From positions 1 to 25,478 of IMG/VR virus record IMGVR_UViG_3300020045_003265: 25,478 nt of DNA; one strand, given 5' to 3'. The notes under the pieces are model-generated. The model was given only the letters and a program-made list of their open reading frames with translations. It was not told the DNA's origin and ran no database searches. Source of the stretch: a virus (taxonomy: Duplodnaviria > Caudoviricetes). The position numbers and the translations under genes were made by a program. The first letter of the stretch is position 1; each line of letters opens with the position of its first letter. Positions 3,892-24,350 of this stretch are shown piece by piece.

Positions 3892-3920
3892 TTGACACTG
3901 GTACTTCAGCGTGATACCAT
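3892..3920 (+). promoter_or_regulatory. sigma70-type promoter driving non-coding element copy A
   Basis: TTGACA-17 nt-TACCAT with TG extended -10. Confidence 0.8.
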
Positions 3921-3926
3921 CTACGT

Positions 3927-4290
3927 ATGGGTATGTAAAGGTCTAGGCAATGGAGTAGTTCGTTGTACACATGTGGTTCATAACTCTCCACAGGCTTACG
4001 AGTAATCATTACACGAGCGCTAAACTCTCGGATAATCCCAGCTAACAAATGCTGTAGCACAAAACTACAGTCTACCGAATGCAAAGGAGTTCACTACGGC
4101 ATAACCTTCGGGTTCCTGTTGTGAATGGAACGGTAGCAGGAACCTCAGAGAACATTGTTCTTAGGAAACTGAAGTCTTAACCCATTAAGGAACAAGGCAG
4201 AACTAATCTGTTGCTTGACCTCTAAAGGGATTTCTGACTTCTGATTTTCCTAGAGAATATATTTAATACCTAAGTAATTAGTAATACTAT
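3927..4290 (+). ncRNA. putative structured ncRNA or origin-associated transcript, copy A
   Basis: Begins ATGGGTA 7 nt after the -10; shares ACGAGTAATCATT, a CTAAA-loop hairpin, TAATCCCA, CAGTCT..AAAGG..GGCAT and GTAATTAGTAA with the copy at 23940-24315; no conserved ORF; 3' end uncertain. Confidence 0.65.
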
Positions 4291-4370
4291 AGTAGTTAAC
4301 TTAGTAATCATAAGATTAAAGAAAGAATAAACAAATGAAAGAAGATATAAAGAGAAGTTATAAGGATAAG

Positions 4371-4493
4371 ATGTACTATTTAGTGTTGTTAGCTCTTACA
4401 TTTACTCTTAACTTTATCACTGGATTACTAACAGCAGTTGGGATAGTTTTTGTCATGTTAACGTTACTTGGTTACGTTACTTTTAAAGTATGA
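4371..4493 (+). CDS. 40-aa hydrophobic membrane peptide (not in the ORF track)
   Basis: TAAGGATAAG-ATG; MYYLVLLALTFTLNFITGLLTAVGIVFVMLTLLGYVTFKV; TGA overlaps the ATG of the next gene. Confidence 0.7.
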   Translation: MYYLVLLALTFTLNFITGLLTAVGIVFVMLTLLGYVTFKV

Positions 4494-4990
4494 CTAAACC
4501 ACAGGTTAAACACAACCACAAAGACTTCATCACGTATGACCCTGTACAGGGTAGTTTCATGCTAAAGAAAGAAGGTTGTGAACTCAGAGAGGTTTATCCT
4601 AATGACAACGGATACATCCTTTATGGACATGAGAAGAAGCTAAGGTATGTGAGAGCTTGTGTAATTGCTTATGAGATATTTAACTCATGTGTTATTCCAA
4701 GTAATCACAAGATACTCTTTAAAGATTTAGATATGACTAACTTAAAAGCTAATAACTTAGGCTTAGTCAGTGCTGAAGAGTACAAAGAAGCTACTCAAGC
4801 ACTAAGGAACTTATCTAACATAAAGCTAAAGCCCCACCCACATGATAAGCATAGTTATATCTTGACATACAATGAGAACGGTATGCGTGTACGCAAAGTA
4901 ATCTTTGATGTTGTTGTAGCAAAGAGAGAGCTTATAAAACTGAAGGTTAAGTTTACTAAAGTAGTATCTAAGTATTTCTATTTGGACTAA
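4490..4990 (+). CDS. degenerate HNH-endonuclease-like protein
   Basis: YDPVQGSF, NGY, RACVIAYEI and ILFKDLDMTNLKANNL align with phage HNH_3 motifs (YD..TG.F, AHRl.w, IDHkDG..lNN...NL), but the His residues are absent. Confidence 0.65.
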   Translation: MTKPQVKHNHKDFITYDPVQGSFMLKKEGCELREVYPNDNGYILYGHEKKLRYVRACVIAYEIFNSCVIPSNHKILFKDLDMTNLKANNLGLVSAEEYKEATQALRNLSNIKLKPHPHDKHSYILTYNENGMRVRKVIFDVVVAKRELIKLKVKFTKVVSKYFYLD

Positions 4991-5017
4991 GCTGAAGTAC
5001 AAGCTATTGTTTGTGTA

Positions 5018-5046
5018 TTGCTATTTTGTGTAAGTAATGATATAAT
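5018..5046 (+). promoter_or_regulatory. sigma70-type promoter for the tRNA/ncRNA cluster
   Basis: TTGCTA-17 nt-TATAAT with TG extended -10; 10-bp inverted repeat at 5010-5019/5044-5053. Confidence 0.8.
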
Positions 5047-5073
5047 ACACAAATGAAATAAGAGATTAAGATA

Positions 5074-5251
5074 TAATCAGCGGTGTGGAAGGACACACTA
5101 AGCAAGGATGATGCAACGGAGTTTAGGGTGCTTAACCTACCTGAAGTCAACATAAGAGGTTTAACCGACTCGTTAAAAATGGGTGCATCTGTCTGGTAGG
5201 TAGTTGCATAGCCAATATGCAATAAACTGGTATCAAGCCCAGTCTGATTAC
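5074..5251 (+). ncRNA. tRNA-like RNA with a large structured insert replacing the anticodon arm
   Basis: 7-bp acceptor TAATCAG/CTGATTA; D-like arm GTGT-GGAAGG-ACAC; T-like arm ACTGG-TATCAAGC-CCAGT; about 128-nt paired insert. Confidence 0.65.
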
Positions 5252-5375
5252 ATTTTATAGAAAAACAGAGCTTGCACTTTGTTATACTGATTGGCTCTGC
5301 GGAATATCGTGTTGAAACCACCTTGCAGGTAAATGTTCTTAAAACGGAAAAACGTGTAGAAAGTGAGTTAATGAA

Positions 5376-5642
5376 ATGAGTAAATTCAAACGGGAAGACC
5401 GCTACCTTGTCATTAAACGTAGCGACGTTCCGCATCTGCCAGCGGAAGAGCAAAGAAGCCTTGCGTATATTGCAGGCCTCATCGAAGAGAACCGATTGAT
5501 ACGTGGCAAATTGCCTGTGGAATGTGTTGTGGTGGAGAGAGACTGGCCTGAGTACGAAGTCGTCTTCAAGATGATCGAAGCGCGGGTGAATGGAAGCACT
5601 GAATTCCACACGGACCATGACAAGCCAACTTCCACACCTTAA
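5376..5642 (+). CDS. hypothetical phage protein
   Basis: 88-aa ORF, visibly more GC-rich than its flanks; GAG SD; lies inside the RNA cluster. Confidence 0.7.
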   Translation: MSKFKREDRYLVIKRSDVPHLPAEEQRSLAYIAGLIEENRLIRGKLPVECVVVERDWPEYEVVFKMIEARVNGSTEFHTDHDKPTSTP

Positions 5643-5644
5643 TA

Positions 5645-5738
5645 CGGTGAGCCTACTTATTCTGTAGCACTTGCTTTATTAATATGGTGAGTAGGGTCTA
5701 GCAATGGACGGTAGCTACACTGGAATATAGTAACCAGT
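5645..5738 (+). ncRNA. putative pseudoknotted small RNA
   Basis: CCTACTTATT/GGTGAGTAGG stem; TGTAGC/GCTACA pseudoknot; GTCTA-GCAA-TGGAC GNRA hairpin; terminal ACTGG/CCAGT hairpin. Confidence 0.5.
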
Positions 5739-5747
5739 ACAAATTAA

Positions 5748-5825
5748 GTGCCTATAGCTCAGTGGATTTAGAGCAGCAGGTTTCTACCCTGTAGGTCGGC
5801 AGTTCGAGTCTGTCTAGGCATACCA
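5748..5825 (+). tRNA. tRNA-Arg (anticodon TCT)
   Basis: Cloverleaf: GTGCCTA/TAGGCAT acceptor, GCTC/GAGC D stem, GCAGG/CCTGT stem with loop TT-TCT-AC, GGCAG-TTCGAGT-CTGTC T arm, encoded CCA. Confidence 0.95.
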
Positions 5826-5867
5826 AACAAGACCATAACTAAAATAATAAGAACAAAAGAATTTCCA

Positions 5868-6098
5868 ATGACTAAACCAACCGCCCAACCAGCTAAATAT
5901 TGCAAGCAATGTAATACACCACTGAAGTACGCTAAACAGCGTAAAAACTTAATCTGTAGAGAGTGCAATGACAAAGCATACGAGCTTAATTCATTCAGTG
6001 TGTATGACATTGAAGCTGATCTAGAAGTGCTTGTTAATCCAAGCGGGAAGACAAGAGTACATGACTATGATACTATCAGTGGGTACAAGGAAGATTAA
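5868..6098 (+). CDS. small zinc-ribbon-like hypothetical protein
   Basis: CKQC...CREC pair; 76 aa. Confidence 0.6.
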   Translation: MTKPTAQPAKYCKQCNTPLKYAKQRKNLICRECNDKAYELNSFSVYDIEADLEVLVNPSGKTRVHDYDTISGYKED

Positions 6099-6140
6099 GT
6101 AGTTTGTTAAGTAAGTCCTAAGCAAGACAGTAAACTGCTA

Positions 6141-6239
6141 GAGCTACCTTAGTTTAAGCTGGCAAAACATCAAGCCTAAAGGTAGAACCTAAGTCTTTAC
6201 TTAGAGTGCAAGTTCAATTCTTGCAGGTAGCTCGCACCA
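6141..6239 (+). tRNA. atypical class II tRNA-like gene (possible tRNA-Leu(TAA) pseudogene)
   Basis: 9-bp GAGCTACCT/AGGTAGCTC acceptor; GTTT/AAAC D stem; GCAAG-TTCAATT-CTTGC T arm; long variable hairpin CTAAGT/ACTTAG; anticodon stem TCAAG/GTAGA has 2 mismatches; 3' end GCACCA. Confidence 0.65.
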
Positions 6240-6248
6240 AATAAATCA

Positions 6249-6342
6249 ACAAGCATTTGCCATGAGTTATCCTGAAGTAAGCAGTAGTGCTAAGAGCTAC
6301 TAGGCTGCTTTATGGGTTATTACTTGTGGTGTTTTGCTTGCT
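6249..6342 (+). repeat. long imperfect hairpin (about 95 nt)
   Basis: Nested pairings CAAGCA/TGCTTG, GCCATGAGT/ACTTGTGGT, AGTAG/CTACT. Confidence 0.55.
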
Positions 6343-6345
6343 GGT

Positions 6346-6481
6346 AAAGGTCGGCACAACTGTGTTGCACCTTAGAATCGTTTGTACGAACACAAGTATA
6401 GGCTAGTCCCGCTTGTTGAGACAACGGCGAAGCCTTTGGCTTGCCTGAGTCGGATCATACAAAGCTGGAGCCGTAACCAGC
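6346..6481 (+). ncRNA. putative structured small RNA
   Basis: AAGGT/ACCTT hairpin; TTTGTACGA/TCATACAAA closing stem; AGGC/GCCT and GGC-GAA-GCC stems; terminal GCTGG-AGCCGTAA-CCAGC hairpin resembling 5719-5738. Confidence 0.5.
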
Positions 6482-6573
6482 AATAACACAAAAACATATC
6501 ACGACAATACAAATGTATTGCGACAGATCACGACATATTAATTTAATACATAGATGTTATCTAAGATGATGTT

Positions 6574-6981
6574 TTGTGTATATGTATAAATAAACAGACT
6601 AAGGGGAATATCATAGTATTCAAAGCAAGAAAAGATAATAACGGTGAACTCGATAGTGCGATTAACAAGCTAGGCAGGATTGCTAAGACAGACAAGCCAA
6701 CTAATCGTAGCTTACGTGAGAAGTACACCGTTGAGTTGCTTCGTAAGCTACGCCCATTGCAGTCAGTGAGTATTACAGCAGCAATGAAAGTAATTCAAAA
6801 TGAAGGCTCTAGTTCGCAGAACGTGCTGAAAGCTGCTGCGATGCTAACAGGGCTGTATAGAAGCGTGCTTAATGATGCTTATGGCAAGGATGATTTAGCA
6901 GATGATGAAGCAGAAATGATTCAGGAGGAGAATCAGCCTAGTTTCTCTTTGAGAATGATTAAAAATGATGATACTGAATAA
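6574..6981 (+). CDS. putative terminase small subunit
   Basis: Directly upstream of the large terminase; basic N-terminus, helical core, acidic tail; start uncertain (SD AAGGGG at 6601-6606 precedes ATA at 6613). Confidence 0.55.
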   Translation: MCICINKQTKGNIIVFKARKDNNGELDSAINKLGRIAKTDKPTNRSLREKYTVELLRKLRPLQSVSITAAMKVIQNEGSSSQNVLKAAAMLTGLYRSVLNDAYGKDDLADDEAEMIQEENQPSFSLRMIKNDDTE

Positions 6982-7006
6982 AGTATAGTTAATAGTAAGG
7001 AGTTAA

Positions 7007-8464
7007 ATGGTAACTAGAAAAACAAAAACAATAAAGAAATTACCGACTAAAACTGAAATCGTATTTGCTCCTGCTTCAAATGCTCAATCTGAGTTTCTAC
7101 TTAGCACGAGCTTTTTCACATTGTACGGCGGTGCGGTATTTGCTGGCAAGTCAATGTGTTTACTTGGCTCTTTTCTCCCTATTTGTCATCACCCCGGTAC
7201 AAGAGCTATTTGTATTCGTAAAACAACTAAACAGATCACTGGTGCTGGTTCTCTCTTTGATGCTGCTATTCAGCTTTACTCAAAGGTTGACCCTAAACTG
7301 AAGATTCGTTCAAGGGATATGATTCTCCAGTTCAGTTCTGGAGCTACCATTCAATTCACCTACTTAGATAAACCTGCTGATAGGATGAATTTACAGGGGA
7401 AAGAATTTTCACATATTATGCTAGACGAGTGCCAACAGCTAAGTATAGATAACGTTCTATACGCTGCTTCGCGCCTCCGTTCCACAATAGTTGATTACCC
7501 CTTAAGAATTGTTGCTAGTTGCAATCCAGACGCAGATTGCTGGTTAAGAGAGTGGGTAGAGTTTGCATTAGATGAACGTGGTATTCCTATTCGCAAGGAT
7601 AAATATGACGAGCGCTACTTTGTTAGAACCCAAGCAGGGATGCAATGGTTTGACACCTTATCTGAAGCACAATCATTGTTTGGTACATCTCCAGAAGCAG
7701 GTATAAAGAGCTTTAAGTTCGTCCCGGGTACTATCCTTGATAACCCAATCGGCATGGCCCTTAACAGGGATTACATCTCCACTCTTAAAGCACTTCCAAG
7801 AATTGAAATGGAGCGGCTACTTCTGGGCTCATGGCATGCGCGTGAGAGCGCTAGTGGGTACTTTAAACGTGATTGGGTAACACTTGTAGACTACCCTAGT
7901 GTGCATGCTACAAAGCGTGTAAGAAGCTGGGACTTAGCATCAACACTCCCTAGTGAGGTTAGACCATCTCCAGATGCTACTGCTGGTGTATTAATGAGTA
8001 GAGATAGAAGTGGTGTTGTGACGGTTGAGAACGTTCAACTTATGCGGAATAGGATTCACGAGGTAGAGAAGTTAATCTTTGAAACAGCACACAATGACAC
8101 ACCAGATGTAACTATTACTATTCCACTCGACCCGGGAGCTACTGCTGGAGCTTATTGTAGAGATTTAGCGCGTAGGTTAAGTGAGCAAGGTTTCTACGTC
8201 AAGCTTATTAGACCAGAAAAAGGGAAACTACAAAGGTTCCTTCCTTTCGCTAGTGCTGCTGAAGCTAAATTTGTTAATGTAGTAAGGGCAGAATGGAATG
8301 AGAGTTTCTTTGTTGAATTAGAGAACATGGACTTTACTGCTAAATATCATGATGATCAAGCGGATGGTTGTAGTGATGCTTATTATCAACTAAACAGAAC
8401 TATAGAAATCCCAGCCTTCACCCTCCCCGACCTCTCCACTGCCCCCGCTTTCTCTTTCTCCTGA
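7007..8464 (+). CDS. terL: terminase large subunit
   Basis: Walker A YGGAVFAGKS, Walker B IMLDE, ASCNP coupling motif, WDLA and HDDQADG RNase H-like nuclease motifs; TAAGGAG SD. Confidence 0.95.
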   Translation: MVTRKTKTIKKLPTKTEIVFAPASNAQSEFLLSTSFFTLYGGAVFAGKSMCLLGSFLPICHHPGTRAICIRKTTKQITGAGSLFDAAIQLYSKVDPKLKIRSRDMILQFSSGATIQFTYLDKPADRMNLQGKEFSHIMLDECQQLSIDNVLYAASRLRSTIVDYPLRIVASCNPDADCWLREWVEFALDERGIPIRKDKYDERYFVRTQAGMQWFDTLSEAQSLFGTSPEAGIKSFKFVPGTILDNPIGMALNRDYISTLKALPRIEMERLLLGSWHARESASGYFKRDWVTLVDYPSVHATKRVRSWDLASTLPSEVRPSPDATAGVLMSRDRSGVVTVENVQLMRNRIHEVEKLIFETAHNDTPDVTITIPLDPGATAGAYCRDLARRLSEQGFYVKLIRPEKGKLQRFLPFASAAEAKFVNVVRAEWNESFFVELENMDFTAKYHDDQADGCSDAYYQLNRTIEIPAFTLPDLSTAPAFSFS

Positions 8465-8559
8465 CCCTCTCTGGTCTACCTCCCTATCTCCACATTAGCT
8501 TTACCCTATCACTTCCGATAGTCCATAGCTCTTACCTATCTACCTAAAAGGAACTGCCT

Positions 8560-10059
8560 ATGGCAACCAAGAAACCCTCTATCCCTGTCCCTAAAGGCAT
8601 CGCCACCGGCGGGGCCGCTGTCCCTAAACAAGACCAAACATTACCTTTTAGTTTAGACGAACAAGGCTATCAAGGTTGGAACATCTTCAACGGTATCTCT
8701 CAAGATGAAGTAAAACGTGAGCTTGTTTTTCCAAATTCTGTAAAAGTATTCAAGCAAATGAGTATGCACCCTGCTATTGCAGCACCTCTATCATTGTTTG
8801 ATGCTCAACTAGGTAAATGCGAATGGAAGGTACAAGCACCTGATAATCCCACTAAGAAAGAGCTATCTCAGACTCAGTTCATTCGTGAATGCTTAGATGA
8901 TATGGAACACTCCTTTAGTGACTTTGTTAGGGATGCTGCTAGTGCTAATCAGTTCGGCTTTAGTGTACACGAGAAAGTATTCCGATTGCGCTTACCAGAG
9001 TACGGCTCAATGTACTCTGATGGCAAAGTAGGCTGGAAGAAACTACCTTTACGCAATCAAGAGACTATCAATAGATTCTTGTTCTCGCAAGATGGTAACG
9101 ACATTACAGGCGTTGAACAAGCATTCCCTAGTGGAGACACCTACGGACGCTACCAAGGGCGTACAGACATGCCTAGGCTGTCTCTTGGGCCTAATGGTAA
9201 GGCTATGTTGTTTCGTGTTGGTAAGCATAGAGGTGTGCCTACTGGTGCATCCCCTTTGAGAGATGCTTACATCTCTTGGAGATACCTTACTGAGCTAGAG
9301 CAGCTTGAAGCACATGGTATTGCTAGAGATTTAAAGGGCTTACCTGTCCTAAAGATTCCACCACAGTATATGTCCAATGACGCTACACCTGAACAGAAGC
9401 AGATTTATGATTACTACAAGAATGTACTTCGTAATATGCAGACTAATCAGCAATCAGGTTTAATTCTTCCAACAGCTTTTGATGAAAACAAACAACCACT
9501 GTTTAGCTTAGAACTTCTTAATTCAGCAGGCCAAAAGAGCCATGATATTGATAAAGCTAAGACCTATTACATGAATGCTATTTACACAGCAATGTCTGCT
9601 GATATTTTAATCATGGGTCAATCAGCTACAGGTAGCTTTGCTTTAGGTGCTATTAAGAACTCATTGGTTGGTTCATATTTGGAAAACATGGTTAAGACTT
9701 TGCTTCAAGTTATTAATGATGATTTAGTTAAACAGACTTATGAACTCAATAACTGGGATTCATCTCGTAGATGTAAAGTCTATGCAACTAACCTAGAAGC
9801 TGAAGACTTAGAAACACTCTCTAAAGGACTCCAGAGACTTTCAAGCACCTCATGTATTGAACTAGATCGTGCAGTTCTTAATAGAGCACGTAGAGCAGTT
9901 GGTGTTGATGAATTACCAGATGACTTAGAGCCACAAATGGAATACCTGCCTAACTTTACATCTAAATCAGGTTCTGGTATGAATACTGTTGGTGAAGGTA
10001 CTAGCTTATCTATTAGTGGTGCTGATAATTCAAGCAATAACCTTGATAACACTGCTTAA
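8560..10059 (+). CDS. portal protein
   Basis: Follows terL; 499 aa; GFSVHEKVF, P.G.SPLR.AY..W and GLP motifs typical of DUF935/Mu gp29-like portals. Confidence 0.9.
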   Translation: MATKKPSIPVPKGIATGGAAVPKQDQTLPFSLDEQGYQGWNIFNGISQDEVKRELVFPNSVKVFKQMSMHPAIAAPLSLFDAQLGKCEWKVQAPDNPTKKELSQTQFIRECLDDMEHSFSDFVRDAASANQFGFSVHEKVFRLRLPEYGSMYSDGKVGWKKLPLRNQETINRFLFSQDGNDITGVEQAFPSGDTYGRYQGRTDMPRLSLGPNGKAMLFRVGKHRGVPTGASPLRDAYISWRYLTELEQLEAHGIARDLKGLPVLKIPPQYMSNDATPEQKQIYDYYKNVLRNMQTNQQSGLILPTAFDENKQPLFSLELLNSAGQKSHDIDKAKTYYMNAIYTAMSADILIMGQSATGSFALGAIKNSLVGSYLENMVKTLLQVINDDLVKQTYELNNWDSSRRCKVYATNLEAEDLETLSKGLQRLSSTSCIELDRAVLNRARRAVGVDELPDDLEPQMEYLPNFTSKSGSGMNTVGEGTSLSISGADNSSNNLDNTA

Positions 10060-10135
10060 CACTGCTTGATACAACCTTAAACAGCTTTAATCATTCAATA
10101 TTATTGAACTTAACAGCCTTGACTGTTTAATTTAA

Positions 10136-10164
10136 TTGACAACAAACATAACAAATGATATAAT
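10136..10164 (+). promoter_or_regulatory. consensus sigma70 promoter for the head genes
   Basis: TTGACA-17 nt-TATAAT with TG extended -10; inverted repeat at 10146-10155/10175-10184. Confidence 0.85.
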
Positions 10165-10229
10165 ACAACTATTGTTTGTTATGTCTTGATATAAAATAAC
10201 TATAAGCAGTTTATCAAGCATACAAGATC

Positions 10230-10344
10230 AAACCAACTACTACACAGAACGAGTAGGCTCATTGAGAAATATCGCTCTAGCTAACCTTGATATGTTCACG
10301 TTGTACGAGTGCAATGCTTGTATTACTCATGTAGTAGTTGGTTT
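10230..10344 (+). promoter_or_regulatory. structured 5' leader closed by a perfect 15-bp inverted repeat
   Basis: AAACCAACTACTACA (10230-10244) / TGTAGTAGTTGGTTT (10330-10344), extended by GAGTA/TACTC. Confidence 0.65.
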
Positions 10345-10367
10345 ACCCACTGTTGTCAAGGGACTCA

Positions 10368-10736: not shown

Positions 10737-10749
10737 ATAAAGGATAACT

Positions 10750-11673: not shown

Positions 11674-11690
11674 AATAATAAAGGAAAAAT

Positions 11691-12086: not shown

Positions 12087-12108
12087 TAAATAATAAAGGA
12101 TAAAAAGA

Positions 12109-13128: not shown

Positions 13129-13134
13129 TGTAAT

Positions 13135-13973: not shown

Positions 13974-14432
13974 ATGGCAAATACAACTGCACTCTGTAAT
14001 TCTTACAAAGCTGAAATCCTAAGTGGTACTCATGCATCTGCTGATGTGTACAAAATTGCACTAATCAAAGCAGGCGCTGCTGGTACTTATGGTGCTGGTA
14101 CTCTTAATGTAGGCACTCCCGGTACTGGATCACCTACAGCATCTAACTTAGGTACTGACGAGGTTGTTGGCACTGGCTACACCTCTGGTGGAGCTACTCT
14201 AGCAGGCTTCTCAGTCACTGAAACTGGTTCAGTTGCTCGTTTGGACTTTACTACACCTTCTTGGAGTACAGCTACTATTAGTGCTACTGGGGGTATTATT
14301 TATAACTCAAGCAAGTCCAATAAGACTGTTGCTGTGTTTGACTTTGGTGGGACTATCACAAGCACTGCTGGTACGTTCACAGCTACTATGCCTGCTGTTG
14401 GTGATGCCACCTCTCTAATCCGTATTGCTTAA
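13974..14432 (+). CDS. putative virion structural protein
   Basis: Gly/Thr/Ala-rich beta protein with GTGYTSGG and DFGGT...AGTF motifs; AAAAGGAA SD. Confidence 0.65.
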   Translation: MANTTALCNSYKAEILSGTHASADVYKIALIKAGAAGTYGAGTLNVGTPGTGSPTASNLGTDEVVGTGYTSGGATLAGFSVTETGSVARLDFTTPSWSTATISATGGIIYNSSKSNKTVAVFDFGGTITSTAGTFTATMPAVGDATSLIRIA

Positions 14433-15619
14433 TGTTACTTCTTACATCTGTAGCTGATATAGTTCGGCTTACAACAAGTGTTGCTACGACTACAATTGAA
14501 GTTCATACGAGTTACATGGATGTAAGCGGAACAAGTATTACACCCGGCAGAACCAACACTTTAATCACTACCGCTACTACTACTAGTATAGTTAGCTCGC
14601 CGCCTATCTCTACTCAAAGGAATGTTAAAGCTATTTACTGCACAAATAACAGCACTGGAACTTCTTGTACTGTTAGTATTGAGCACTTTGATGGTGTTGT
14701 CGCCGTAGAACTTATGTCTTTTGTACTCTTACCCGGTGAGAATCTAGGTTACGGAGAAGACGGATCATGGGTACATAGAGACAGTCAAGGGGCTGAATAT
14801 CCAGCAGCGGGGCTTGGTAACTATGGAGGTAGAAATATTCCGTTCATGAAGACATCAACAGTGACAGATGCTGCTGGTGTTTGGTACTGCACATCAAAAG
14901 ATGCAGGCTATCCCGGTGCATGGGCTGTTGGTGCACCCGGTATAAATGGAAGAATAACTAATGGAACAGCTGCGGCGGACTACGGTTGTATTCCAATTGC
15001 TAATGCAGCCACTGGGGCTAATTATTTAACAGCCTTAGAAATGGCATCAAGTGTTAATCATACGAATGACTTCTTTGATGTTCTTTGGGTAAATAGTGGT
15101 ATTGCGGTTACAACAACTACTCTTCAAGCAATAACAACCCCAACATTACCAGCAAGGGATGTTAATGGAGCTACTGCTGGTGAGGGTTGTACTATTGCTT
15201 TGTTGGTAACAACTGTATCTACAAATGCTGCTGCTAATGCAGGCATTACTGTAACGTACACGAACAGCAAAGGAACTGGTTCCCGTACAGCTAGACTATC
15301 AGCTATAGCAGGTTCACAACTACCCGTTGGTGCAAATATTGGGGCTATGTGCTGGTTTCAACTTGATGCTGGTGATACAGGAGTACAAAGCATACAAGGT
15401 ATTACGCTCACTACGACACTACTAACAGGGGCTGTTTCATTAATGATTTGTAGGGATATAGCCACGATTGGGACTGCCATTGTGAATGTAAGCACGCCGA
15501 AGACAATTGGCTCTCCCGGTATTAGATTATATAACGGTACTTGTCTTTTACATAATATTCTTTGTAGTGCAACAACTGCTACGTTCTTTTCTGGTGGTCT
15601 TGCTGTAATGGAGAAATAG
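14432..15619 (+). CDS. putative structural beta-sandwich (fibre-associated) protein
   Basis: 395 aa, Thr-rich; TAATG overlap; LDAGDTGVQSIQ motif. Confidence 0.6.
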   Translation: MLLLTSVADIVRLTTSVATTTIEVHTSYMDVSGTSITPGRTNTLITTATTTSIVSSPPISTQRNVKAIYCTNNSTGTSCTVSIEHFDGVVAVELMSFVLLPGENLGYGEDGSWVHRDSQGAEYPAAGLGNYGGRNIPFMKTSTVTDAAGVWYCTSKDAGYPGAWAVGAPGINGRITNGTAAADYGCIPIANAATGANYLTALEMASSVNHTNDFFDVLWVNSGIAVTTTTLQAITTPTLPARDVNGATAGEGCTIALLVTTVSTNAAANAGITVTYTNSKGTGSRTARLSAIAGSQLPVGANIGAMCWFQLDAGDTGVQSIQGITLTTTLLTGAVSLMICRDIATIGTAIVNVSTPKTIGSPGIRLYNGTCLLHNILCSATTATFFSGGLAVMEK

Positions 15620-15793
15620 ATGTTGATAATTGGAGTAATAAACAATGTAGTAGATATAGCTGTAACAATAACTCCAGACCAATTGCAGACTTTGACTGAA
15701 ATGTTTCCAGAGCATACCTTCACAGAGCAACAAAGTAATGAAGATATCGGTTGGATTTATGATGGAGTGAAGTTTACTGAGCCAGTGGTGTAG
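15620..15793 (+). CDS. 57-aa tail-fibre-assembly-like small protein (not in the ORF track)
   Basis: GGAG SD; ATG abuts the upstream TAG; C-terminal IGWIYDGVKFTEP matches the GW.YDG..F..P pattern of fibre assembly chaperones. Confidence 0.7.
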   Translation: MLIIGVINNVVDIAVTITPDQLQTLTEMFPEHTFTEQQSNEDIGWIYDGVKFTEPVV

Positions 15794-15795
15794 TT

Positions 15796-17241
15796 ATGGT
15801 GTTCCTTGGCTTATTTGACGGGGAACTAAGATCAGATGCTTGGTTTGATGCTGACTTACAGCAAGCAGCTTGGTTTGATACCGATGTTGTTAATGTGCAA
15901 CAAGATATTGGAGTGGATACTAACGTATCACTAGGTAGTGTAAGCTCAAGCACACAGATTGGCTTACAAGTTATTAGGGGAGATTCACAGGTTGTACTTA
16001 CTGGTATTAATGATACAACGAGTATTAATACTGTATTACCTTTTGGTAATTCATCAGTACAACTTAGCACAATACAAGCGCAATCAAGCGTAAATCAGTT
16101 TGTACTGTATAGTAGTGCTATTGTGGTATTGCAAAGCAGTCATTGTGCAACAAGTGTAGGTGTAATTACAGCAAGCTCAACAGGGTCTGCTGAAGTACAA
16201 CTTAACGGAGTACAAGGTACTTCACAAGTAAGTGAACTTATCTTAACAGGTAATGCTGTTAAATCTCTAACTGGTCTACAAAGTTCATCTGGTTTAGGCA
16301 GTATTACAGCTAGTGCAAATACCAGCACAACACTGATCTCCTCTCAAGCTAGTACAAGCACACAGCCATTGAATGCTTCTGGTACAGCTACTAAAGCATT
16401 ACCAAGTACACAAGCTAGTCAGTCTGTTGGAAGTATAAGTACAAGTGCTTCAAGTGTTACCTCTTTAGTTGGCAGTCTAGGTGCTACACAGATACAAGGA
16501 TTATCTTTAAGCGGTACTTCGGTAGTCAATGTACTTGGAACTCAAGCTGTAACAAGCTTAGGTACTTTAAATGCACTAGGAAGTGCCTACAGCAGCATTG
16601 GAACAGTACTTGGTACATCAGGTACTGGTAACTTACTTAATGCAGCTACAGCCTTTGTATTACTTCAAGGTAGCAATAGTAGTTCTAATGTTGGACTGAT
16701 CCAAGCTACTGCGGAGTCCTCTGTTGGAGCTAATGTAGCATTGATAGGTATTTCTGCTAGTTCAGTTCTAAGCTCTGTGTTTTCTTCTGGTACTTCTGTT
16801 GTTGCATTAACTAGTACAAGCTCAACAAGTGCCGTAGGTAATACAACACAAACGGCTAGTGCTAATAAGGTATTCCAAGGTGTTAACTCAGTTACTTCTG
16901 TTGGTGTATTACACGCTAGTGGTATCGTAAACGTATCATTTAGTCTACAAAGTATATCAAGTGATACACAAATCAATAACTTGGTATTATCTGGAAGCTC
17001 AGTAACTAACCTTCAAGCACTTAATGCTGTATCAAGCATAAACAACTTGAGTATTATTGCTGAAGCACTTGCTTTGATATATGGTTGTGAAGGTATTACT
17101 GAAGTATCAAATATAGTACCTGAATCAAGTACATTTGACTTAATCAGAAAGTACACAAACAAAACAACTGAGCTAAAGCTAGGTAGTATTTATAAAACAA
17201 AAGTACAGACTGTGTATAACTCAATTAACAAACTAAAGTAA
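15796..17241 (+). CDS. Ser/Thr/Gly-rich fibre-like protein with about 22-aa degenerate repeats
   Basis: Consecutive units such as LTGLQSSSGLGSITASANTSTT / LISSQASTSTQPLNASGTATKA / LPSTQASQSVGSISTSASSVTS. Confidence 0.7.
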   Translation: MVFLGLFDGELRSDAWFDADLQQAAWFDTDVVNVQQDIGVDTNVSLGSVSSSTQIGLQVIRGDSQVVLTGINDTTSINTVLPFGNSSVQLSTIQAQSSVNQFVLYSSAIVVLQSSHCATSVGVITASSTGSAEVQLNGVQGTSQVSELILTGNAVKSLTGLQSSSGLGSITASANTSTTLISSQASTSTQPLNASGTATKALPSTQASQSVGSISTSASSVTSLVGSLGATQIQGLSLSGTSVVNVLGTQAVTSLGTLNALGSAYSSIGTVLGTSGTGNLLNAATAFVLLQGSNSSSNVGLIQATAESSVGANVALIGISASSVLSSVFSSGTSVVALTSTSSTSAVGNTTQTASANKVFQGVNSVTSVGVLHASGIVNVSFSLQSISSDTQINNLVLSGSSVTNLQALNAVSSINNLSIIAEALALIYGCEGITEVSNIVPESSTFDLIRKYTNKTTELKLGSIYKTKVQTVYNSINKLK

Positions 17242-17359
17242 GGTATGTATGCAAGAAAATGAAGTAATACAAAGTGTTACTAAGTTGTATGTATCTTTTA
17301 GTTCTGTTAATAAAGTACAACTACAACAACATTTACAAACACAGATTAAAGGTAGTAAT

Positions 17360-17635
17360 ATGATTTACACAGGAGATACAGGTACTATTGTTAGGCTTGA
17401 TACTTTAACTGATATAACAACAGCTACTTCACTTGTAATTAAAGTAAAGAAACCAAGTGGAGTTAGTGCTACTTGGGTAGCTACATTAGAAGGTACTACA
17501 GTATTGAAATACATTTCAGTAAATGGTGACTTCAATGAATCAGGTACTTACAAGATGCAACCACAAGTAGTTATGCCGGGGTTTACTGGTAGTGGTGATA
17601 TTACTCAAGTACAAGTAGATAGCACTTTAGCTTAA
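17360..17635 (+). CDS. BppU N-terminal-like Ig-fold adaptor protein
   Basis: GDTG...L...DIT.A......KKPSG......Y....GD....G.Y pattern; start probably ATG 17360 after AAAGGTAG (ORF track start 17249 also possible). Confidence 0.55.
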   Translation: MIYTGDTGTIVRLDTLTDITTATSLVIKVKKPSGVSATWVATLEGTTVLKYISVNGDFNESGTYKMQPQVVMPGFTGSGDITQVQVDSTLA

Positions 17636-17643
17636 GGACAACA

Positions 17644-18087: not shown

Positions 18088-18434
18088 CACCAGCAGAAAG
18101 AGCAACAATAAGAGCTATTAATACTCACGGTCTAGCTTGTACTTACTCTAAGGTAGCTAGTGTTTACGATGTAGAAACTTCAGTAGCTACTAAGACTTTA
18201 ACTAGCTACTCAACTAAAGCTTATAAGCAACATTTAAAAGCTACTCAGTTTCATTATCCTAGCTTGATAAGTAAAGATGCTGCTTTGTTTCTGTTGAGTG
18301 GTTATGAGTTAGGTTTTACTCCTGAAGTAGAAGATCAAATCCAACAAGGTAGTGATATTTACAAAGTACAACAGATTCAAGAGCATAGTGCTTATGGTGG
18401 TGTTTTCTTGTATAAATTAGCTTGCATCAAGTAA
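18084..18434 (+). CDS. head closure (stopper) protein
   Basis: 116 aa after the adaptor; YDVETS, P...D.I and Y.V..I patterns. Confidence 0.7.
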   Translation: MTPAERATIRAINTHGLACTYSKVASVYDVETSVATKTLTSYSTKAYKQHLKATQFHYPSLISKDAALFLLSGYELGFTPEVEDQIQQGSDIYKVQQIQEHSAYGGVFLYKLACIK

Positions 18435-18443
18435 AGGCAATGG

Positions 18444-19160
18444 ATGATTAATTATTTAAATAAATTGAAGTACTTTGTAGTAGCTTTGTTTATTACTTTC
18501 AGTTTTAACTGTTTAGCACAAGAAGATGAAGTACCTAAGCTCTACGAAGGTAAAGTAACTGTTTTGACTGGTGTATCAAAGTACCAGAAGCAAGGTGATG
18601 GAATATGGTATCAAGAAGCCTTTCCTTATGAGCTAAAACTCAATACTAACAGTGTAGGTATCAGGTACGACACAAAGCCAAAGGATAATGTTTCTTACGG
18701 CTTTGGCTACATGAAACTAGGCGGTGTTAGCTCTTATGCTAAAGCAACTGCTAAGGACAATACATCACCCGGTGATGATGGCTACAGTCCAGATTTAAAA
18801 GGTTGTGACGGCACTTGTTGGCCTTTGAGTACATGGTACGGTAAAGGTGATGTTCAAGGTGTCTTTGGAGCGGCTAAGTACCACAGTGGCCCTTGGGCAG
18901 TAGAAGCTGGTGTATATGCTTATAAGCCAAGCTGGAGCATGAAGATTCCTGATTACATTAGCTGTAGAGATTGTCAACCAGTTTATCTAGAAGTAAACCA
19001 CAAAGAAGATATTCAAATTGGCCCTATGCTTGGTTTAAGTTACACAAAAGAACCTTGGTCATTGCACTTGAGTACTTGGAGAGTTAATGTAAACGGTGAT
19101 GAATGGATTCCAGTATGGACAGGTTGGACTACTAATTTATCGCTTGGATATAGCTTCTAG
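18444..19160 (+). CDS. predicted outer-membrane beta-barrel protein (moron)
   Basis: Sec signal peptide ending CLA-Q; amphipathic aromatic-rich strands; C-terminal NLSLGYSF BAM beta-signal. Confidence 0.75.
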   Translation: MINYLNKLKYFVVALFITFSFNCLAQEDEVPKLYEGKVTVLTGVSKYQKQGDGIWYQEAFPYELKLNTNSVGIRYDTKPKDNVSYGFGYMKLGGVSSYAKATAKDNTSPGDDGYSPDLKGCDGTCWPLSTWYGKGDVQGVFGAAKYHSGPWAVEAGVYAYKPSWSMKIPDYISCRDCQPVYLEVNHKEDIQIGPMLGLSYTKEPWSLHLSTWRVNVNGDEWIPVWTGWTTNLSLGYSF

Positions 19161-19164
19161 TTGT

Positions 19165-19656
19165 ATGTCTGTATCAGTAAATACAAAAGCCACTGAAGCC
19201 TCTCTTGAGAAGTACAAACAACAACTAGAGCAGAAGTTCATTAAGCTTTCAAAGAGGCTTTCTTTTGTAGTAGCTCAAAGTGCTATCGAGGTAACACCTT
19301 ATGGTGATGTGGACAGATATAGAGGATTATATGAGTACCGTAAGGCTACTAAAGGTTATGAGATACAAGCAGGTCTAGCCAAGGGTTCTTGGACTGTTCA
19401 AGTGGGTTCTAGTGCTTCTAAAGGGGCTATCTTTTACGATGACAGACAAGGCTCTGAAGCACTTGGTAGTGCTATTGGTAATGTCCAGTCATTCAAGCTA
19501 GGTGATAGTATTTATATTAATAACACCTTAGATTACATCAAGCAACTTGAAAATGGTTACTCGCAGCAAGCACCACAAGGAATGCTAAAGCCAGTTATGG
19601 AACATATCAAAGCTGTTTATAAGATTAATTTACAGCAGGTACTTGATGCTGATTAG
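19165..19656 (+). CDS. neck/tail-completion protein (HK97 gp10-like)
   Basis: TP...G.AKGSW and IYINN.LDYI..LE.GYSQQAP.GM motifs; start ATG 19165. Confidence 0.8.
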   Translation: MSVSVNTKATEASLEKYKQQLEQKFIKLSKRLSFVVAQSAIEVTPYGDVDRYRGLYEYRKATKGYEIQAGLAKGSWTVQVGSSASKGAIFYDDRQGSEALGSAIGNVQSFKLGDSIYINNTLDYIKQLENGYSQQAPQGMLKPVMEHIKAVYKINLQQVLDAD

Positions 19657-19683
19657 AGTAGATAACAACAAAGGAATAAATAA

Positions 19684-21468
19684 ATGACAAAAACAGTAAC
19701 TGAGTACAGTGTGGATGTTGGCGGTAATACAACTGTAGAGTACAGTGATGGTACTACGAACAAGTTTAATATTACGGATGCTGTAACGGCTCAGACTAAT
19801 CCTGTCACCGGGGGGGTTGAATTTTTAACAGGCGGCGCCCGTATTTACATGGACAGCAGCCTGTCATTGAATTCCTTTGGCTCTCCTGATGTAAATGGAT
19901 GCTGGTCGGCTGTGTTTCAGGCTGCGAACGACCACTTAGTAAGCCTTGCAGCCGAGCGCGGTACGTTCGACGGCTTGCCAAGTATTCGGGTCCAGTCCGC
20001 CGTTTTCAAAATGCTGACTGGCGTGGTCTTTGCGCCCAATGTCAAATTTGTCGCTGAAGGATCGTTCACCCTTGACTTCAGTACAGCCGGGGCGGGCGTC
20101 GGTGGTATATCAATATCAGGCTATGCTGGCGGTCCTGCCTCTGATAGCTACGGTTTTACAGGTCACGTCCTATCAGCTCCAGCGGGAACGATACACATCG
20201 CAGGGCCGGGGCGTGAGGTGTCAACTGCTGTGGCTATCACAATCGGCAATGCGTCTGCTGGCCTGTCGATTTGCCGAGAAGTCGGCTTGTCAAATTTGAG
20301 TGTGACAGGATGGGGGACGGCGCTAGAGTTCAGGAAGTACGACACTTACCTGTTTCACGCCGAGACATGCAGGTTTGAACGCAATTTCAACGGCATCAAA
20401 ACTCCATCGGGCGCAGTGTCAAACTCAGGCGAAAGAATGTCCTTTCGGTCTTGTGTGTTCGCACAAACGGGAGTCACTGGGGCGCTTGTTACCCATGCTT
20501 GCGACACGTTTAATCTGTCCTTCAATGACTGCTCCTTTGATTTCTTTCACACGTTGTTGTGCTGCAAAAGTGGCGCAACATACGCAAAAGTTAGCTTCAA
20601 CGAGTCCCACATGGAGGGTGTTGATGGGTACTTGGTTGATTGGCAGTCTTTCGGCGAAAACTTCTTTGTCGAAATCAATGGCGGCACGATTCTCCCAACA
20701 CCGTTCAACGCAACGGCGGCGTATCACGCCAGTCCTTCGAGGGACTTATTCAATTTCTCAGGGTCGGAGGGTGTTGAGGTGCATATTGACAATGCACCGA
20801 TCCTCTATACGAAGCCACCGATCACGGATTATCCGCGCTTGTCGGGTGGCTCAGTCGCAGCAAGCGGAAAGAACTTGCTGAAGGTGACAGGGCACAGGTC
20901 TTACTCGTTCAATCCACTGTTGATTGAGTCAATCGCAAACGATGACCACAACTTTGCGGAAAACGCTGCGGGTACTGCAATGGCCGCGCTAACGGGCTGG
21001 AGTCTGCCGGATAGCGGGAATGTGAGTGGTTCGTCTGTCATTACCCACGGCGGGCGAAATGTCCTAAAAATTACATCTACAGCCCTTGTCGGCAGTTACG
21101 CGGTGTTGTCAAGCAAGGTTTCGTTTCCTGTCCACCCGGGTGGACTTTTGTTTACAAGCGCAGCTGTCAGTTTGTCGGGACTCGATCTTACTGGTGCGGC
21201 TGCTGGTGATCCAGCCCTTGAGGTTGGTGTCCAGTTTTTGCGCCAAGATGGCTCCGTGCTCTCAACCAAGACGCTGGCTACGGCAATTGGCAACGTGTTT
21301 GCCGACTCAAGCGCCGGGAACTTTGGGGAGGGTGCCGCTCGGTTTATTTCTACATCGCCTTTCCCATTCTCAGTGCCACCAGGCGCGAGAACAGCAAAGG
21401 CGTATTGTGTGTTCTCGAAGTTCAAGGGTGATTTGCTTGTGTCTAACCTATGCGTGTCGGCTCAGTAA
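19684..21468 (+). CDS. tailspike/depolymerase-like receptor-binding protein
   Basis: Short N-terminal anchor, then pectin-lyase-like beta-helix strands (AVFQAA, NSGERMSFRSCVF, FNDCSFDF) and a C-terminal jelly-roll-like region; GC-rich from about 19801. Confidence 0.75.
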   Translation: MTKTVTEYSVDVGGNTTVEYSDGTTNKFNITDAVTAQTNPVTGGVEFLTGGARIYMDSSLSLNSFGSPDVNGCWSAVFQAANDHLVSLAAERGTFDGLPSIRVQSAVFKMLTGVVFAPNVKFVAEGSFTLDFSTAGAGVGGISISGYAGGPASDSYGFTGHVLSAPAGTIHIAGPGREVSTAVAITIGNASAGLSICREVGLSNLSVTGWGTALEFRKYDTYLFHAETCRFERNFNGIKTPSGAVSNSGERMSFRSCVFAQTGVTGALVTHACDTFNLSFNDCSFDFFHTLLCCKSGATYAKVSFNESHMEGVDGYLVDWQSFGENFFVEINGGTILPTPFNATAAYHASPSRDLFNFSGSEGVEVHIDNAPILYTKPPITDYPRLSGGSVAASGKNLLKVTGHRSYSFNPLLIESIANDDHNFAENAAGTAMAALTGWSLPDSGNVSGSSVITHGGRNVLKITSTALVGSYAVLSSKVSFPVHPGGLLFTSAAVSLSGLDLTGAAAGDPALEVGVQFLRQDGSVLSTKTLATAIGNVFADSSAGNFGEGAARFISTSPFPFSVPPGARTAKAYCVFSKFKGDLLVSNLCVSAQ

Positions 21469-21538
21469 TTGACAAATCTAATCCCTTCTGCACAAAGATT
21501 AGAAATAAACAAGTAACTAACAAGAAAGTGAGGTACTT

Positions 21539-21946
21539 ATGGCTTTACCTAGAATTAAAGTAGCTCTTGAGAAAGCTATCAAAGCTCTTGATCCTAGCTT
21601 CAGTACAGCTTATGAAAACGTAGAGTTCACTCCACAAGCAAACACTCCTTATCAGGATATTCAAATAGTCCCAAGAGCACCAGATAATCAGACTGTAGGG
21701 TCTGGTTATTATAGAGAAGTCGGAGAACTTCAGGTGTTCTTGAGCTATCCAAGTAATACAGGTACTTCAGCTTGTATGCTTAAAGCAGTACAACTAAGAG
21801 ATTACTTCAAGAGAGGTAATACTTATAGTAATGCTGGGATTGATGTGAATATTATGAAAACACCAAGTATCTCAAGTGGTAGTGTTATCGGAGATAGGTA
21901 TGTTGTTGTGGTAGTGATTAACTACAGTGCGGGGGTCTTTAAATAA
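21539..21946 (+). CDS. tail terminator protein
   Basis: AYENVEFTP, G.LQVFL.YP...G and YFKRG motifs; precedes the tail tube; GAGGT SD. Confidence 0.8.
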   Translation: MALPRIKVALEKAIKALDPSFSTAYENVEFTPQANTPYQDIQIVPRAPDNQTVGSGYYREVGELQVFLSYPSNTGTSACMLKAVQLRDYFKRGNTYSNAGIDVNIMKTPSISSGSVIGDRYVVVVVINYSAGVFK

Positions 21947-22124
21947 GTTTAAAGCCCTAGGAGTGTTTAAGGCTTAGTGCTGGTTATGAATTAGCAGTGA
22001 AGAAAGAATAAGACACTGAAGGCAGATTGGCTTATCAGTGCGGTTAAGGTGTAGCACTTAGGTGTTATCAGTAAGTACAAGCATAATATATGCTTTTGGT
22101 TTTATAAATAATAAGGAAATATCT

Positions 22125-23339
22125 ATGACAATTGCAACAGGCGTAACAAAGTCAGTAATCATTAAAGAAGAAACTACTTGGGGTACTCTTGCAGGTTCCT
22201 CTGGTGGTCAAGTAATGAGGAGATTGACTTCCGACTTCAATTTATCGAAGGATAGTTACAAATCAAACGAAATCAGAACAGATCGTCAAACAGTAGATAT
22301 GCGCCACGGAATGCGTAAAGTGGATGGCACTATTAACCAAGAGCTTGCTCCCGGTAGTGCTAGTAAAATGATTGCAGCAATCCTCTGTAAGGACTTCGCA
22401 GTAGGTGCTACAGCAACTTCGCTTTCATTGACAATTACAACTTCTGGTAGCACTTATGTACTAACTAGAGCAACGGGGTCTTTCATTACTGATTCCTTCA
22501 AGGTAGGCTCAGTTTTAAGATTATCTGTTGGTACGCTCAACGCCGCTAATATCAACAAGAATCTTATGATTGTTGGTGTAACCGCTCTAGCTTTGACTGT
22601 TGTAACACTTAATGGTTCTACAATGGTTAATGAAGGGCCGGTGGCAAATGTGACAGCCTCTACCCCAGGGAAACAGACTTTCATTCCACAGACTGCACAA
22701 ACAGATCGTTCATTCACTGTGGAGCAATTCTTCAGTAATATCAGCCAATCTGAAGTTTACACAGGTTGTAAAGTTGCTTCTGTAGCACTGAACCTTCCTT
22801 CGACCGGTTTGGCAACTTGTAACACAACTCTACAAGGTAAAGACCTAGCATTGACTGGAACTAGCCAATACTTTACAGCACCTACTGCACAGACTACTAC
22901 TGGTGCTCTTAGTGCTGTTAATGGCGTGTTGTGGGTTAATGGTGAGCAAGCTGCTGTCCTTACCGGATTGACTATTAACATTGCTAAAACACTAACACCT
23001 GCTGGAGTGATTGGTAGTAACGTTAGCGCAGATGTATTCAGTGGTCAACTAAGCGTAAGTGGTAATGCAGCTGTTTGGTTTATTGATGATATTTATCGTA
23101 ATATCTTCGTTAATGAAACAGAAGTAGCTATCTCTTTTGCTATCACTACTGGTAATACTGCCGCTGCTGATTTCATTGCGGTGTCACTTCCACGTTGTAA
23201 ATTCAAGACAGCTACCACGTCAGATAGTGCAGATGGTATCAGTGGATCGCACGACTTCGATGCATTGCTTAATGTAGCCGGTGGCACTGGAATGACTACA
23301 GAGCTGACAACTATTGTCGTACAGGATAGTGCTGCTTAA
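22125..23339 (+). CDS. major tail tube protein
   Basis: EETTWG, S.EIR.DRQ, SFTVEQ.F and YTGCKV motifs; start ATG 22125 after TAAGGA. Confidence 0.88.
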   Translation: MTIATGVTKSVIIKEETTWGTLAGSSGGQVMRRLTSDFNLSKDSYKSNEIRTDRQTVDMRHGMRKVDGTINQELAPGSASKMIAAILCKDFAVGATATSLSLTITTSGSTYVLTRATGSFITDSFKVGSVLRLSVGTLNAANINKNLMIVGVTALALTVVTLNGSTMVNEGPVANVTASTPGKQTFIPQTAQTDRSFTVEQFFSNISQSEVYTGCKVASVALNLPSTGLATCNTTLQGKDLALTGTSQYFTAPTAQTTTGALSAVNGVLWVNGEQAAVLTGLTINIAKTLTPAGVIGSNVSADVFSGQLSVSGNAAVWFIDDIYRNIFVNETEVAISFAITTGNTAAADFIAVSLPRCKFKTATTSDSADGISGSHDFDALLNVAGGTGMTTELTTIVVQDSAA

Positions 23340-23352
23340 ACAGTAGACGTAG

Positions 23353-23406
23353 AAAAGCCCCTAGAGGACTACAAGGTATTAACCAAGTGGCTCCCTAGGG
23401 GCTTTT
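23353..23406. terminator. bidirectional intrinsic terminator between convergent genes
   Basis: AAAAGCCCCTAG / CTAGGGGCTTTT perfect 12-bp inverted repeat. Confidence 0.8.
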
Positions 23407-23407
23407 A

Positions 23408-23779
23408 TTATTTAACACAGATACCATAAGCAATAACAATTACATTGTCTACTTGATTACGTCCAATTACGGCTGCTTTCTTTTCACAAGCATATGGGTA
23501 TTTGTATGAACCACATTGAGCTCTATACACAGGACACCCAGCAGATTGCCACACTACCAAGGCTTGTTGATTCTTTAAAGATTCTTTGTCTCTTTGTTGT
23601 GATGACCAATTAATATATAAAGCCAGTACCGTAAGTAGTATCAATAAACTACACATTGAGTTTTTCTTACTCTTGTGTTTTCCAGCACTCCCGGATAAGA
23701 AGAAGAACACCCCTACCGAACTGGCCACTACCGAGATAGCTGTAAGTAAGAGAACCATGAAAACAACTGCATCTGACAT
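23408..23779 (-). CDS. hypothetical two-transmembrane protein
   Basis: AAAGGA SD; two hydrophobic helices; Cys-rich C-terminus; extended -10 TGTGATATACT just upstream. Confidence 0.65.
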   Translation of the reverse strand: MSDAVVFMVLLLTAISVVASSVGVFFFLSGSAGKHKSKKNSMCSLLILLTVLALYINWSSQQRDKESLKNQQALVVWQSAGCPVYRAQCGSYKYPYACEKKAAVIGRNQVDNVIVIAYGICVK

Positions 23780-23939
23780 TCTATATCCTTTAGTTAAAAC
23801 ATAAGTATATCACATCTTGTCCGCATGGCATTGACTTCATAGCCTTATGCACTCCGTAAGGACTACAGCTACTTTAACTATTCTTCTTCTTATTCTCTTA
23901 CCTATCTTTGTATTTTACTTAATTACTTTATACTTCTTA

Positions 23940-24315
23940 GTTACTTACTAATTACCTACTAAGTTATATACTGCGGAAGGTTCTGCCAAATGAGAGTCCT
24001 TTTAGGAGGACAGCTATAAGTACACGTTGTACAAGCCATCTTCCTAAAAGAGGATTCACATCTAACACAACCTTCCAATATGCGGATAGGACTGCCTAAA
24101 CATACTGTCATAACAATCAAAGCAGGTCTATAGATATTAGAATGCCACCTTGATTACCTTTCACTTGACAGACTGACAACACTCGTCATCAGGAGATAGT
24201 GTGGGATTACTGGTCAATTTAGCAGACCTAAGAATGATTACTCGTGTGAAGCGAAGATTGTGTGAATCGCATTGTGCTAAGACATCCGTCAAAGCCTACC
24301 ACTTCTATTACCCAT
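23940..24315 (-). ncRNA. putative structured ncRNA or origin-associated transcript, copy B
   Basis: Begins ATGGGTA 7 nt after the -10; same motifs and spacing as 3927-4290; 3' end uncertain. Confidence 0.65.
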
Positions 24316-24321
24316 TTACGT

Positions 24322-24350
24322 ATTGTATCACCGTACGTGCATGTTGTCAA
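24322..24350 (-). promoter_or_regulatory. sigma70-type promoter driving non-coding element copy B
   Basis: TTGACA-17 nt-TACAAT with TG extended -10 on the minus strand. Confidence 0.8.

Follow-up and report, generated by a model that had tools for sequence, protein, structure and literature searches.

A predicted structured RNA family with an exchangeable 5' domain at candidate replication origins of siphophages related to Curvibacter phage P26059A

What is the function of two diverged, convergent non-coding units that are each led by their own promoter in a phage genome? The units lie in a 25,478-nucleotide (nt) stretch of DNA, here called the window (IMG/VR record IMGVR_UViG_3300020045_003265; Duplodnaviria, Caudoviricetes), a fragment of a freshwater siphophage with genes for ClpP, PhoH, two tRNAs, terminase, portal, capsid, neck, major tail, and tail chaperone; its capsid protein shares 61 to 62% identity with its counterparts in Limnohabitans phage DC31 and Curvibacter phage P26059A. 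In both units, which we call copies A and B, a sigma-70 promoter leads into a structured non-coding unit of ~330 to 350 nt and then into an A-rich tract. Comparison with related phages points to an uncatalogued family of predicted folded non-coding RNA, in whose first ~115 nt the predicted pairing is kept while the sequence differs freely between close relatives. Our favored reading, to which we assign a probability of roughly 40%, is that A and B are transcription-activated replication origins in which this RNA acts as a structured pre-primer or origin-activating RNA. To our knowledge, the start of replication in large non-T4 lytic phages is mostly unknown, and because the present group has a cultured member (P26059A), the question can be addressed directly.

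An initial annotation of the window had listed the motifs common to the two copies, and these were all found: the promoters TTGACA-17-TACCAT (3892 to 3920, plus strand) and TTGACA-17-TACAAT (24350 to 24322, minus strand), both of which also appear in promoter scans; ATGGGTA 6 nt past each −10; a 13-mer at 3998 and 24245 (offsets +71 and +70); TAATCCCA, ending at +113; and GTAATTAGTAA at 4274 and 23955. The copy A promoter has a TG ahead of its −10 and a predicted start at ~3926 to 3927. As many as 67 different 13-mers occur at least twice in the window, so the shared 13-mer taken alone is weak evidence; the colinear similarity of A and B is not due to chance (nhmmer E value of 2 to 3e-6). The 13-mer, the ATG, and GTAATTAGTAA are not family-wide, and other members differ at these positions. 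The ATG frames are as trivial as described (3 and 8 codons), and since the ATG is not conserved, no peptide is implied; a small peptide was ruled out on this ground.

The family comprises nine copies in seven related siphophage records, all kin of P26059A. Besides A and B, copies C and D occupy the same two sites in the same convergent orientation in the record G001, copy E is at site B of a near-identical phage (L168), copy P is in P26059A itself, and copies F, G, and H are in L044, L198, and G010, respectively. Promoter, RNA, hairpin, and AT tract follow each other in this fixed order in all nine, across three different genomic sites, and every copy has a promoter-like motif and, past the 3' hairpin, a 50-nt window of 18 to 32% GC (the tract is weakest in G and the promoter in H). 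The B-site copy appears to have been inserted in one lineage, since it is missing from P26059A, DC31, and L009 to L014. The family is rare: our second covariance model (R2) found no member in 28 of 32 related records, many of which are fragments, and only one of seven near-complete related records had a match.

The 5' ~115 nt of the RNA form a domain, hereafter the head, with six predicted helices, three more conserved ones than the initial annotation had recognized. That annotation considered the sequence between motifs unrelated, but it contains three further covarying helices (P2, H1, and H2) and a GNRA mini-hairpin. Helix P1 pairs the 5' end with the strand ending at +113, and P2 closes a junction that holds H1 (7 bp, 6-nt loop) and H2 (4 bp, UUCA-rich loop); the GNRA mini-hairpin and H3 follow the junction. 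In copy A the head spans 3926 to 4043 on the plus strand (P1, 3928 to 3931 with 4037 to 4040; P2, 3940 to 3943 with ~3993 to 3996; H1, 3947 to 3966; H2, 3973 to 3991 with a UUCA..UCU loop; GNRA mini-hairpin, 4000 to 4007; H3, 4014 to 4030), and in copy B it spans 24199 to 24316 on the minus strand. We drew this fold by eye on a plain MAFFT alignment of the heads of A to E, and RNAalifold returned the same helices unprompted. Across these five heads 95% of alignment cells pair and 21 of 25 pairs have changed on both sides; none of 500 shuffles reached this level, and slid controls dropped to 36 to 46%, although the shuffle control ignores relatedness and the sequence set is small. Copies P, F, and G had been left out of the first model and thus provide an independent check of the fold; the model recovered them with E values of 1e-8, 2e-9, and 7e-12 (covariance-model E values are rough) and at most one broken pair each, with a 39-nt insertion within the GNRA hairpin in P and F. 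Copy H, found with the second model at an E value of 4e-6, retains the P2-H1-H2 core and is missing the GNRA hairpin. The earlier view that conservation acts at the level of RNA structure is supported both by covariation and by model matches outside the training set, and the covariance-model search that had been suggested as a check recovered further copies in relatives.

The 3' parts present a different picture. Each closes with a long irregular hairpin immediately ahead of the AT tract, with fold z scores of −1.2 to −5.3, and they align poorly across lineages, so that their homology is shown within lineages only. In copy A this part (4044 to 4258, plus strand; z of −2.7) holds middle hairpins and a terminal hairpin (~4154 to 4258) that ends directly before the tract, and it has motifs in common with the locus L021, in which the 5' strand has alternative pairings. 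The copy B counterpart (23966 to 24198, minus strand; z of −5.3) ends with a hairpin at ~24076 to 23975. The tracts that follow are A-rich and rich in TAAG and GTAA (4256 to 4400 in copy A, with an approximate right edge; 23870 to 23970 on the minus strand in copy B, with an approximate left edge) and are candidate unwinding elements; the lowest-GC non-coding 120-nt stretch of the window, at 20% GC, starts at 4244 and corresponds to the copy A tract.

Searches of existing collections agree with the earlier impression that the RNA belongs to no recognized family. Against Rfam 15 (4,227 models), no family reached its gathering threshold for A or B, and tRNA alone reached threshold; at E values up to 10, A and B drew weak chance matches, none near threshold and none relevant, and six homologous loci gave nothing relevant at E values up to 1. 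Identity as a tRNA or transfer-messenger RNA was ruled out, and RNase P, hammerhead, and group I cores were rejected for want of Rfam support and from inspection of their motifs by eye. A group I or II intron or HEARO-type RNA is likewise not indicated, as there was no Rfam match, the downstream open reading frame (ORF) varies, and the core motifs, inspected by eye, did not fit. In blastn searches of phage sequences, A, B, D, and P matched P26059A alone, and A had no match among plasmids. Motif scans yielded sets of 7 loci, 72 loci (of which one was real and already known), and 14 metagenome plus 8 genome loci, and we judged the remaining loci to be chance occurrences from their context and from nhmmer. 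Protein-led searches of genome contigs gave no further copies, and no carrier of the RNA was listed among sequencing runs. We found no description of the RNA in the literature searched: the accessible text of the DC31 paper (PMC12195039) has no occurrence of "non-coding" or "ncRNA," and although IMG/VR has been screened for candidate viral structured RNAs (Fremin et al. 2023; PMC10690425), our record identifiers and motif are absent from the four of six supplements of that study that were searchable, whose tables may omit contigs or sequences. Part of the fold may be listed in its alignment supplements.

Strains appear to exchange the head as a cassette. Copies B and E are identical at 41 of 45 positions over the promoter and 5' end and at 244 of 244 over the 3' part (counted from the P1 3' strand), yet inside the head only 57 of 96 positions match, comparable to the 58 of 96 between A and B; all six helices are nevertheless retained in E. 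With the interior replaced while the 3' part is untouched, the head can be regarded as swappable. Exchange has probably also occurred between the two sites; single short public contigs from two runs have promoter A followed by a B-like start, and another such contig has a B-type H1 fused to an A-type H2 loop, which we take as hints only. Wholesale replacement of the 5' domain with preservation of its helices points to strong diversifying selection on the RNA surface and suggests a role in conflict or specificity, whatever the function.

A stable RNA acting in trans as a decoy, sponge, or scaffold, with an exposed 5' domain that diversifies under selection from a host or rival-phage factor and with a tract that is merely a spacer or termination zone, would explain the swapping at least as well as an origin does, and we consider this account possible if somewhat unlikely. 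The mosaic heads at both sites hint in the same direction, two different heads per genome would broaden coverage, and the genes downstream vary. Further, while stems vary freely, bases in loops and junctions are conserved (UAG ahead of H1, an ACA linker, the UUCA loop, and GNRA), suggesting a tertiary fold, and the head alone is no more stable than its shuffles (z of −0.8 to +0.3), as is often the case for RNAs that bind proteins or ligands. Weighing against a trans-acting RNA, the AT tract is kept in all nine copies, those at new sites included; no canonical hairpin-plus-U-run terminator is listed at the 3' end of A, and in B there is only a short candidate within the terminal hairpin; and no target was identified. 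The UAG junction and UUCA loop offer a lead toward mimicry of the tRNA elbow, though the loop lacks the A typical of a T-loop, and inspection by eye suggests possible kissing of H1 and H2 in some copies.

The genomic setting bears on two further accounts. Copy A lies at the junction between a leftward PhoH block and a rightward structural block, and copy B, on the minus strand, separates the major tail gene from the tail chaperone. The initial annotation had the pair bracketing the head/neck module, which is included, but the span is wider, beginning ahead of the tRNAs and terminase and reaching just past the major tail gene. Behind copy A are a 52-amino-acid (aa) hydrophobic ORF (4335 to 4493, plus strand), ahead of which one close relative has an additional inserted ORF of 103 aa, and then a conserved I-HmuI-like HNH protein (4490 to 4990, plus strand). 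Behind copy B is a 123-aa hydrophobic cargo ORF (23408 to 23779, minus strand) followed by a terminator-like hairpin at ~23340 to 23403, and in relatives its position is taken by another, endonuclease-like ORF. A cis-acting leader governing these variable downstream genes (an antiterminator, a processing element, or something riboswitch-like) would fit with the start of every copy near +1, with same-strand ORFs within ~100 to 600 nt, and with the alternative 5'-strand pairings in L021. We regard it as distinctly unlikely, as the genes behind different copies are unrelated to one another, the ribosome-binding site is located past the tract, and L198 has a second promoter between the element and the next gene.

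The insertion of the B-site copy in one lineage and the endonuclease-like ORF behind D and E could instead reflect a selfish mobile unit or homing-nuclease target, in which free-standing endonuclease genes move together with the RNA and the head varies to escape cleavage. This seems very unlikely: head replacement involves ~40 changes with compensations, unlike cleavage-site polymorphism, copies A, B, G, and H have no adjoining intact-looking nuclease, and no Rfam match to intron or HEARO models was found. The ORF behind D and E is presumably of the GIY-YIG type, a label based on its motif, although Pfam gave no family. Behind E it is split into two frames of 148 and 236 aa (L168, 1903 to 3023).

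The contents of the corresponding slot in relatives appear to lend support to the RNA-primed-origin reading. We used as a slot marker the 166-aa HNH-like protein downstream of A, which has 148 relatives at 50% clustering, and examined 37 loci upstream of its gene. Weak HNH_3 matches occur in 41 of 85 aligned members, and its structural model (predicted local distance difference test score of 94) has I-HmuI as the best but weak fold match (E value of 3e-3); its active site looks degenerate, with an acidic residue ahead of the catalytic His seemingly lost relative to the I-HmuI motif. An obligate partnership between the RNA and this protein was ruled out, as the gene is divergent from the RNA in L198 and distant from it in G010. 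An AT tract with a GC content of at most 20% lies within 900 nt upstream, with no RNA match, in 27 of the 37 loci (many of these are near-duplicates from the DC31 group, and two are cut by contig ends), and where the contig is long enough the DC31-group promoter runs straight into the tract. Three loci hold the RNA (C, F, and G). Five have neither RNA, tract, initiator, nor other non-coding stretch, and for two of these the other divergent switch carries a promoter-tract unit, which includes the RNA in G010 and lacks it in G009.

In the same slot, the complete genome G012 encodes a 131-aa winged-helix protein that matches phrog_8102, "replication initiation protein" (E value of 7.8e-11), followed by three 8-nt direct repeats spaced 23 and 22 bp apart, or about two helical turns. 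The slot of G007 (77997 to 78450) instead holds a different promoter-led non-coding stretch of ~400 nt with three G-tracts, no model match, and a fold z score of ~0; with filters off, model R2 found no member at the slots of G007, G009, or G012. The eight complete genomes tested for all of these features have a tract only (four), RNA and tract (two), an initiator and repeats (one), or another promoter-led non-coding stretch (one), and G012, the only one of them with an initiator-like gene, is itself without RNA and tract; the initiator search profile consists of two sequences, so remote homologs may have escaped it. One phage group thus shows apparently interchangeable solutions in this slot: a bare promoter with an AT tract, an RNA with a tract, or an initiator with repeats.

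In the proposed mechanism, host RNA polymerase would transcribe the whole unit, and the RNA would fold as it is made, in both the 5' domain and the 3' hairpin. Its 3' end, which lies in the easily melted tract, would be the sole part to stay on the template as an R-loop. Processing of the RNA could then provide a primer for the phage polymerase and helicase-primase, as at T4 oriF and oriG. The annotation of P26059A includes a DNA polymerase, a primase/helicase, and an exonuclease, the last with homologs in six of six relatives tested. More speculatively, the swappable head might be a binding site for a factor, from host or phage, that licenses priming or sets its timing, and its variation might give origin specificity or escape from defense or nuclease. 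A broader and in our view unlikely extension is a new class of phage origins where R-loop priming is licensed by a folded RNA through an interchangeable 5' head that confers specificity; each phage would have two origin "types" whose heads are reshuffled by recombination, so that a lytic phage would have an RNA counterpart of plasmid incompatibility groups.

Two known systems frame this proposal. In T4 (PMC3016281), oriF and oriG require a promoter and a downstream unwinding element where R-loops form, need no specific RNA sequence, lie near strand switches, and, as minimal origins, span ~100 bp with MotA-dependent middle promoters. The present units resemble them in having a promoter followed by an A+T-rich tract, in their number per genome, and in location, as P, F, G, and H are at divergent strand switches and A is at an equivalent position; the DC31-type slot matches the T4 layout outright. 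The units differ in that their promoters carry a sigma-70 −35 hexamer in place of a MotA-dependent middle promoter and in that 330 to 450 nt of conserved fold precede the tract, and they are candidate origins only. ColE1 (PMC11012335) uses a folded 555-nt pre-primer, against whose 5' end a controlling antisense RNA is directed. The size and predicted fold of our RNA fit such a pre-primer, in that a predicted structured transcript of several hundred nucleotides with a ~110-nt multi-hairpin 5' region would start at a host promoter and end at a candidate origin; in contrast to ColE1, there is no conserved antisense promoter, G-tract, plasmid blastn match, or Rfam match. The present element can therefore be described as the T4-like layout of the DC31-type slot with a ColE1-sized folded RNA added before the tract.

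Several observations weigh against an origin function. Copies B, D, and E are internal to the late operon, away from any major strand switch. The stability of RNA:DNA relative to DNA:DNA over the tracts is unremarkable and lends no clear support, being at about the 5th percentile in A and B, ~0 in P and F, and not favorable in DC31. No copy has a G-tract, and there is no conserved antisense promoter, with a weak 9/12 match at the right place in only two of nine copies (B and E, which share a 3' allele). The fold would be dispensable for a T4-type origin, because T4 R-loops need no specific RNA sequence and the DC31 group is without the RNA. Nor is the RNA a strict substitute for an initiator, since G001 (69% complete) holds two RNA copies together with its own initiator-like gene, two repeats, and an AT tract elsewhere. 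The slot is a hot spot of gene gain, so its occupancy may be due to a strong promoter and not to shared function, and the enrichment of repeat motifs in the tracts was calculated with motifs picked after the tracts had been viewed.

Other orphan RNAs provide looser parallels. ARRPOF (PMC12990946) is also a multi-helix RNA tied to replication by location, but it comes from a Fusobacterium plasmid and has 255 nt, eight stems, and four pseudoknots, and A and B had no Rfam match to it at E values up to 10. GOLLD, ROOL, and OLE are likewise large structured RNAs of unassigned function, the first two often located within arrays of tRNAs, and two tRNAs lie 1.5 kb from copy A; these RNAs differ in size (550 to 830 nt), and the excerpts available for them do not mention a swappable 5' head. 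We conclude that this is best regarded as a new RNA family that probably works like a known kind of origin and that lies outside the T4, ColE1, and ARRPOF families.

Additional features were observed around these loci. The initiator-like winged-helix genes (131 to 132 aa) are located at 63781 to 64250 in G012 (L217, 3781 to 4250) and 71069 to 71620 in G001 (L157, 11069 to 11620), and together with their short direct repeats and AT-rich stretch they are candidate iteron origins in lytic siphophages. A 420-aa protein with an N-terminal Walker-A-like motif (phrog_2467, function not assigned) is encoded in G010 (L205, 4655 to 5917), G009 (L223, 9828 to 11126), and G007 (69282 to 70484), and in G010 and G009, both without a tract there, its gene is divergent from the HNH-like gene. 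P26059A has a second repeat-rich tract at its other divergent switch (56568 to 56800; L017, 14570 to 14810) that resembles the copy P tract and has no RNA match. Between the tract and the HNH-like gene, the DC31 group (L023 to L047) has a conserved, GC-richer stretch of ~200 nt with inverted repeats CCTTCAG/CTGAAGG and CCCCTAGA/TCTAGGGG, possibly a second structured or DNA element, and similar stretches abundant in TAGAG/CTCTA-like words lie upstream of both promoters of the window (3690 to 3810 and 24400 to 24600), where they are possibly bent DNA or protein-binding sites. Within the head-neck block of the window, four ORFs (395, 57, 481, and 128 aa; 14432 to 17635) have no PHROG match, and the AT-rich gap between the portal and protease genes (10060 to 10337) contains a perfect sigma-70 promoter (10136), with a protease ORF of just 132 aa.

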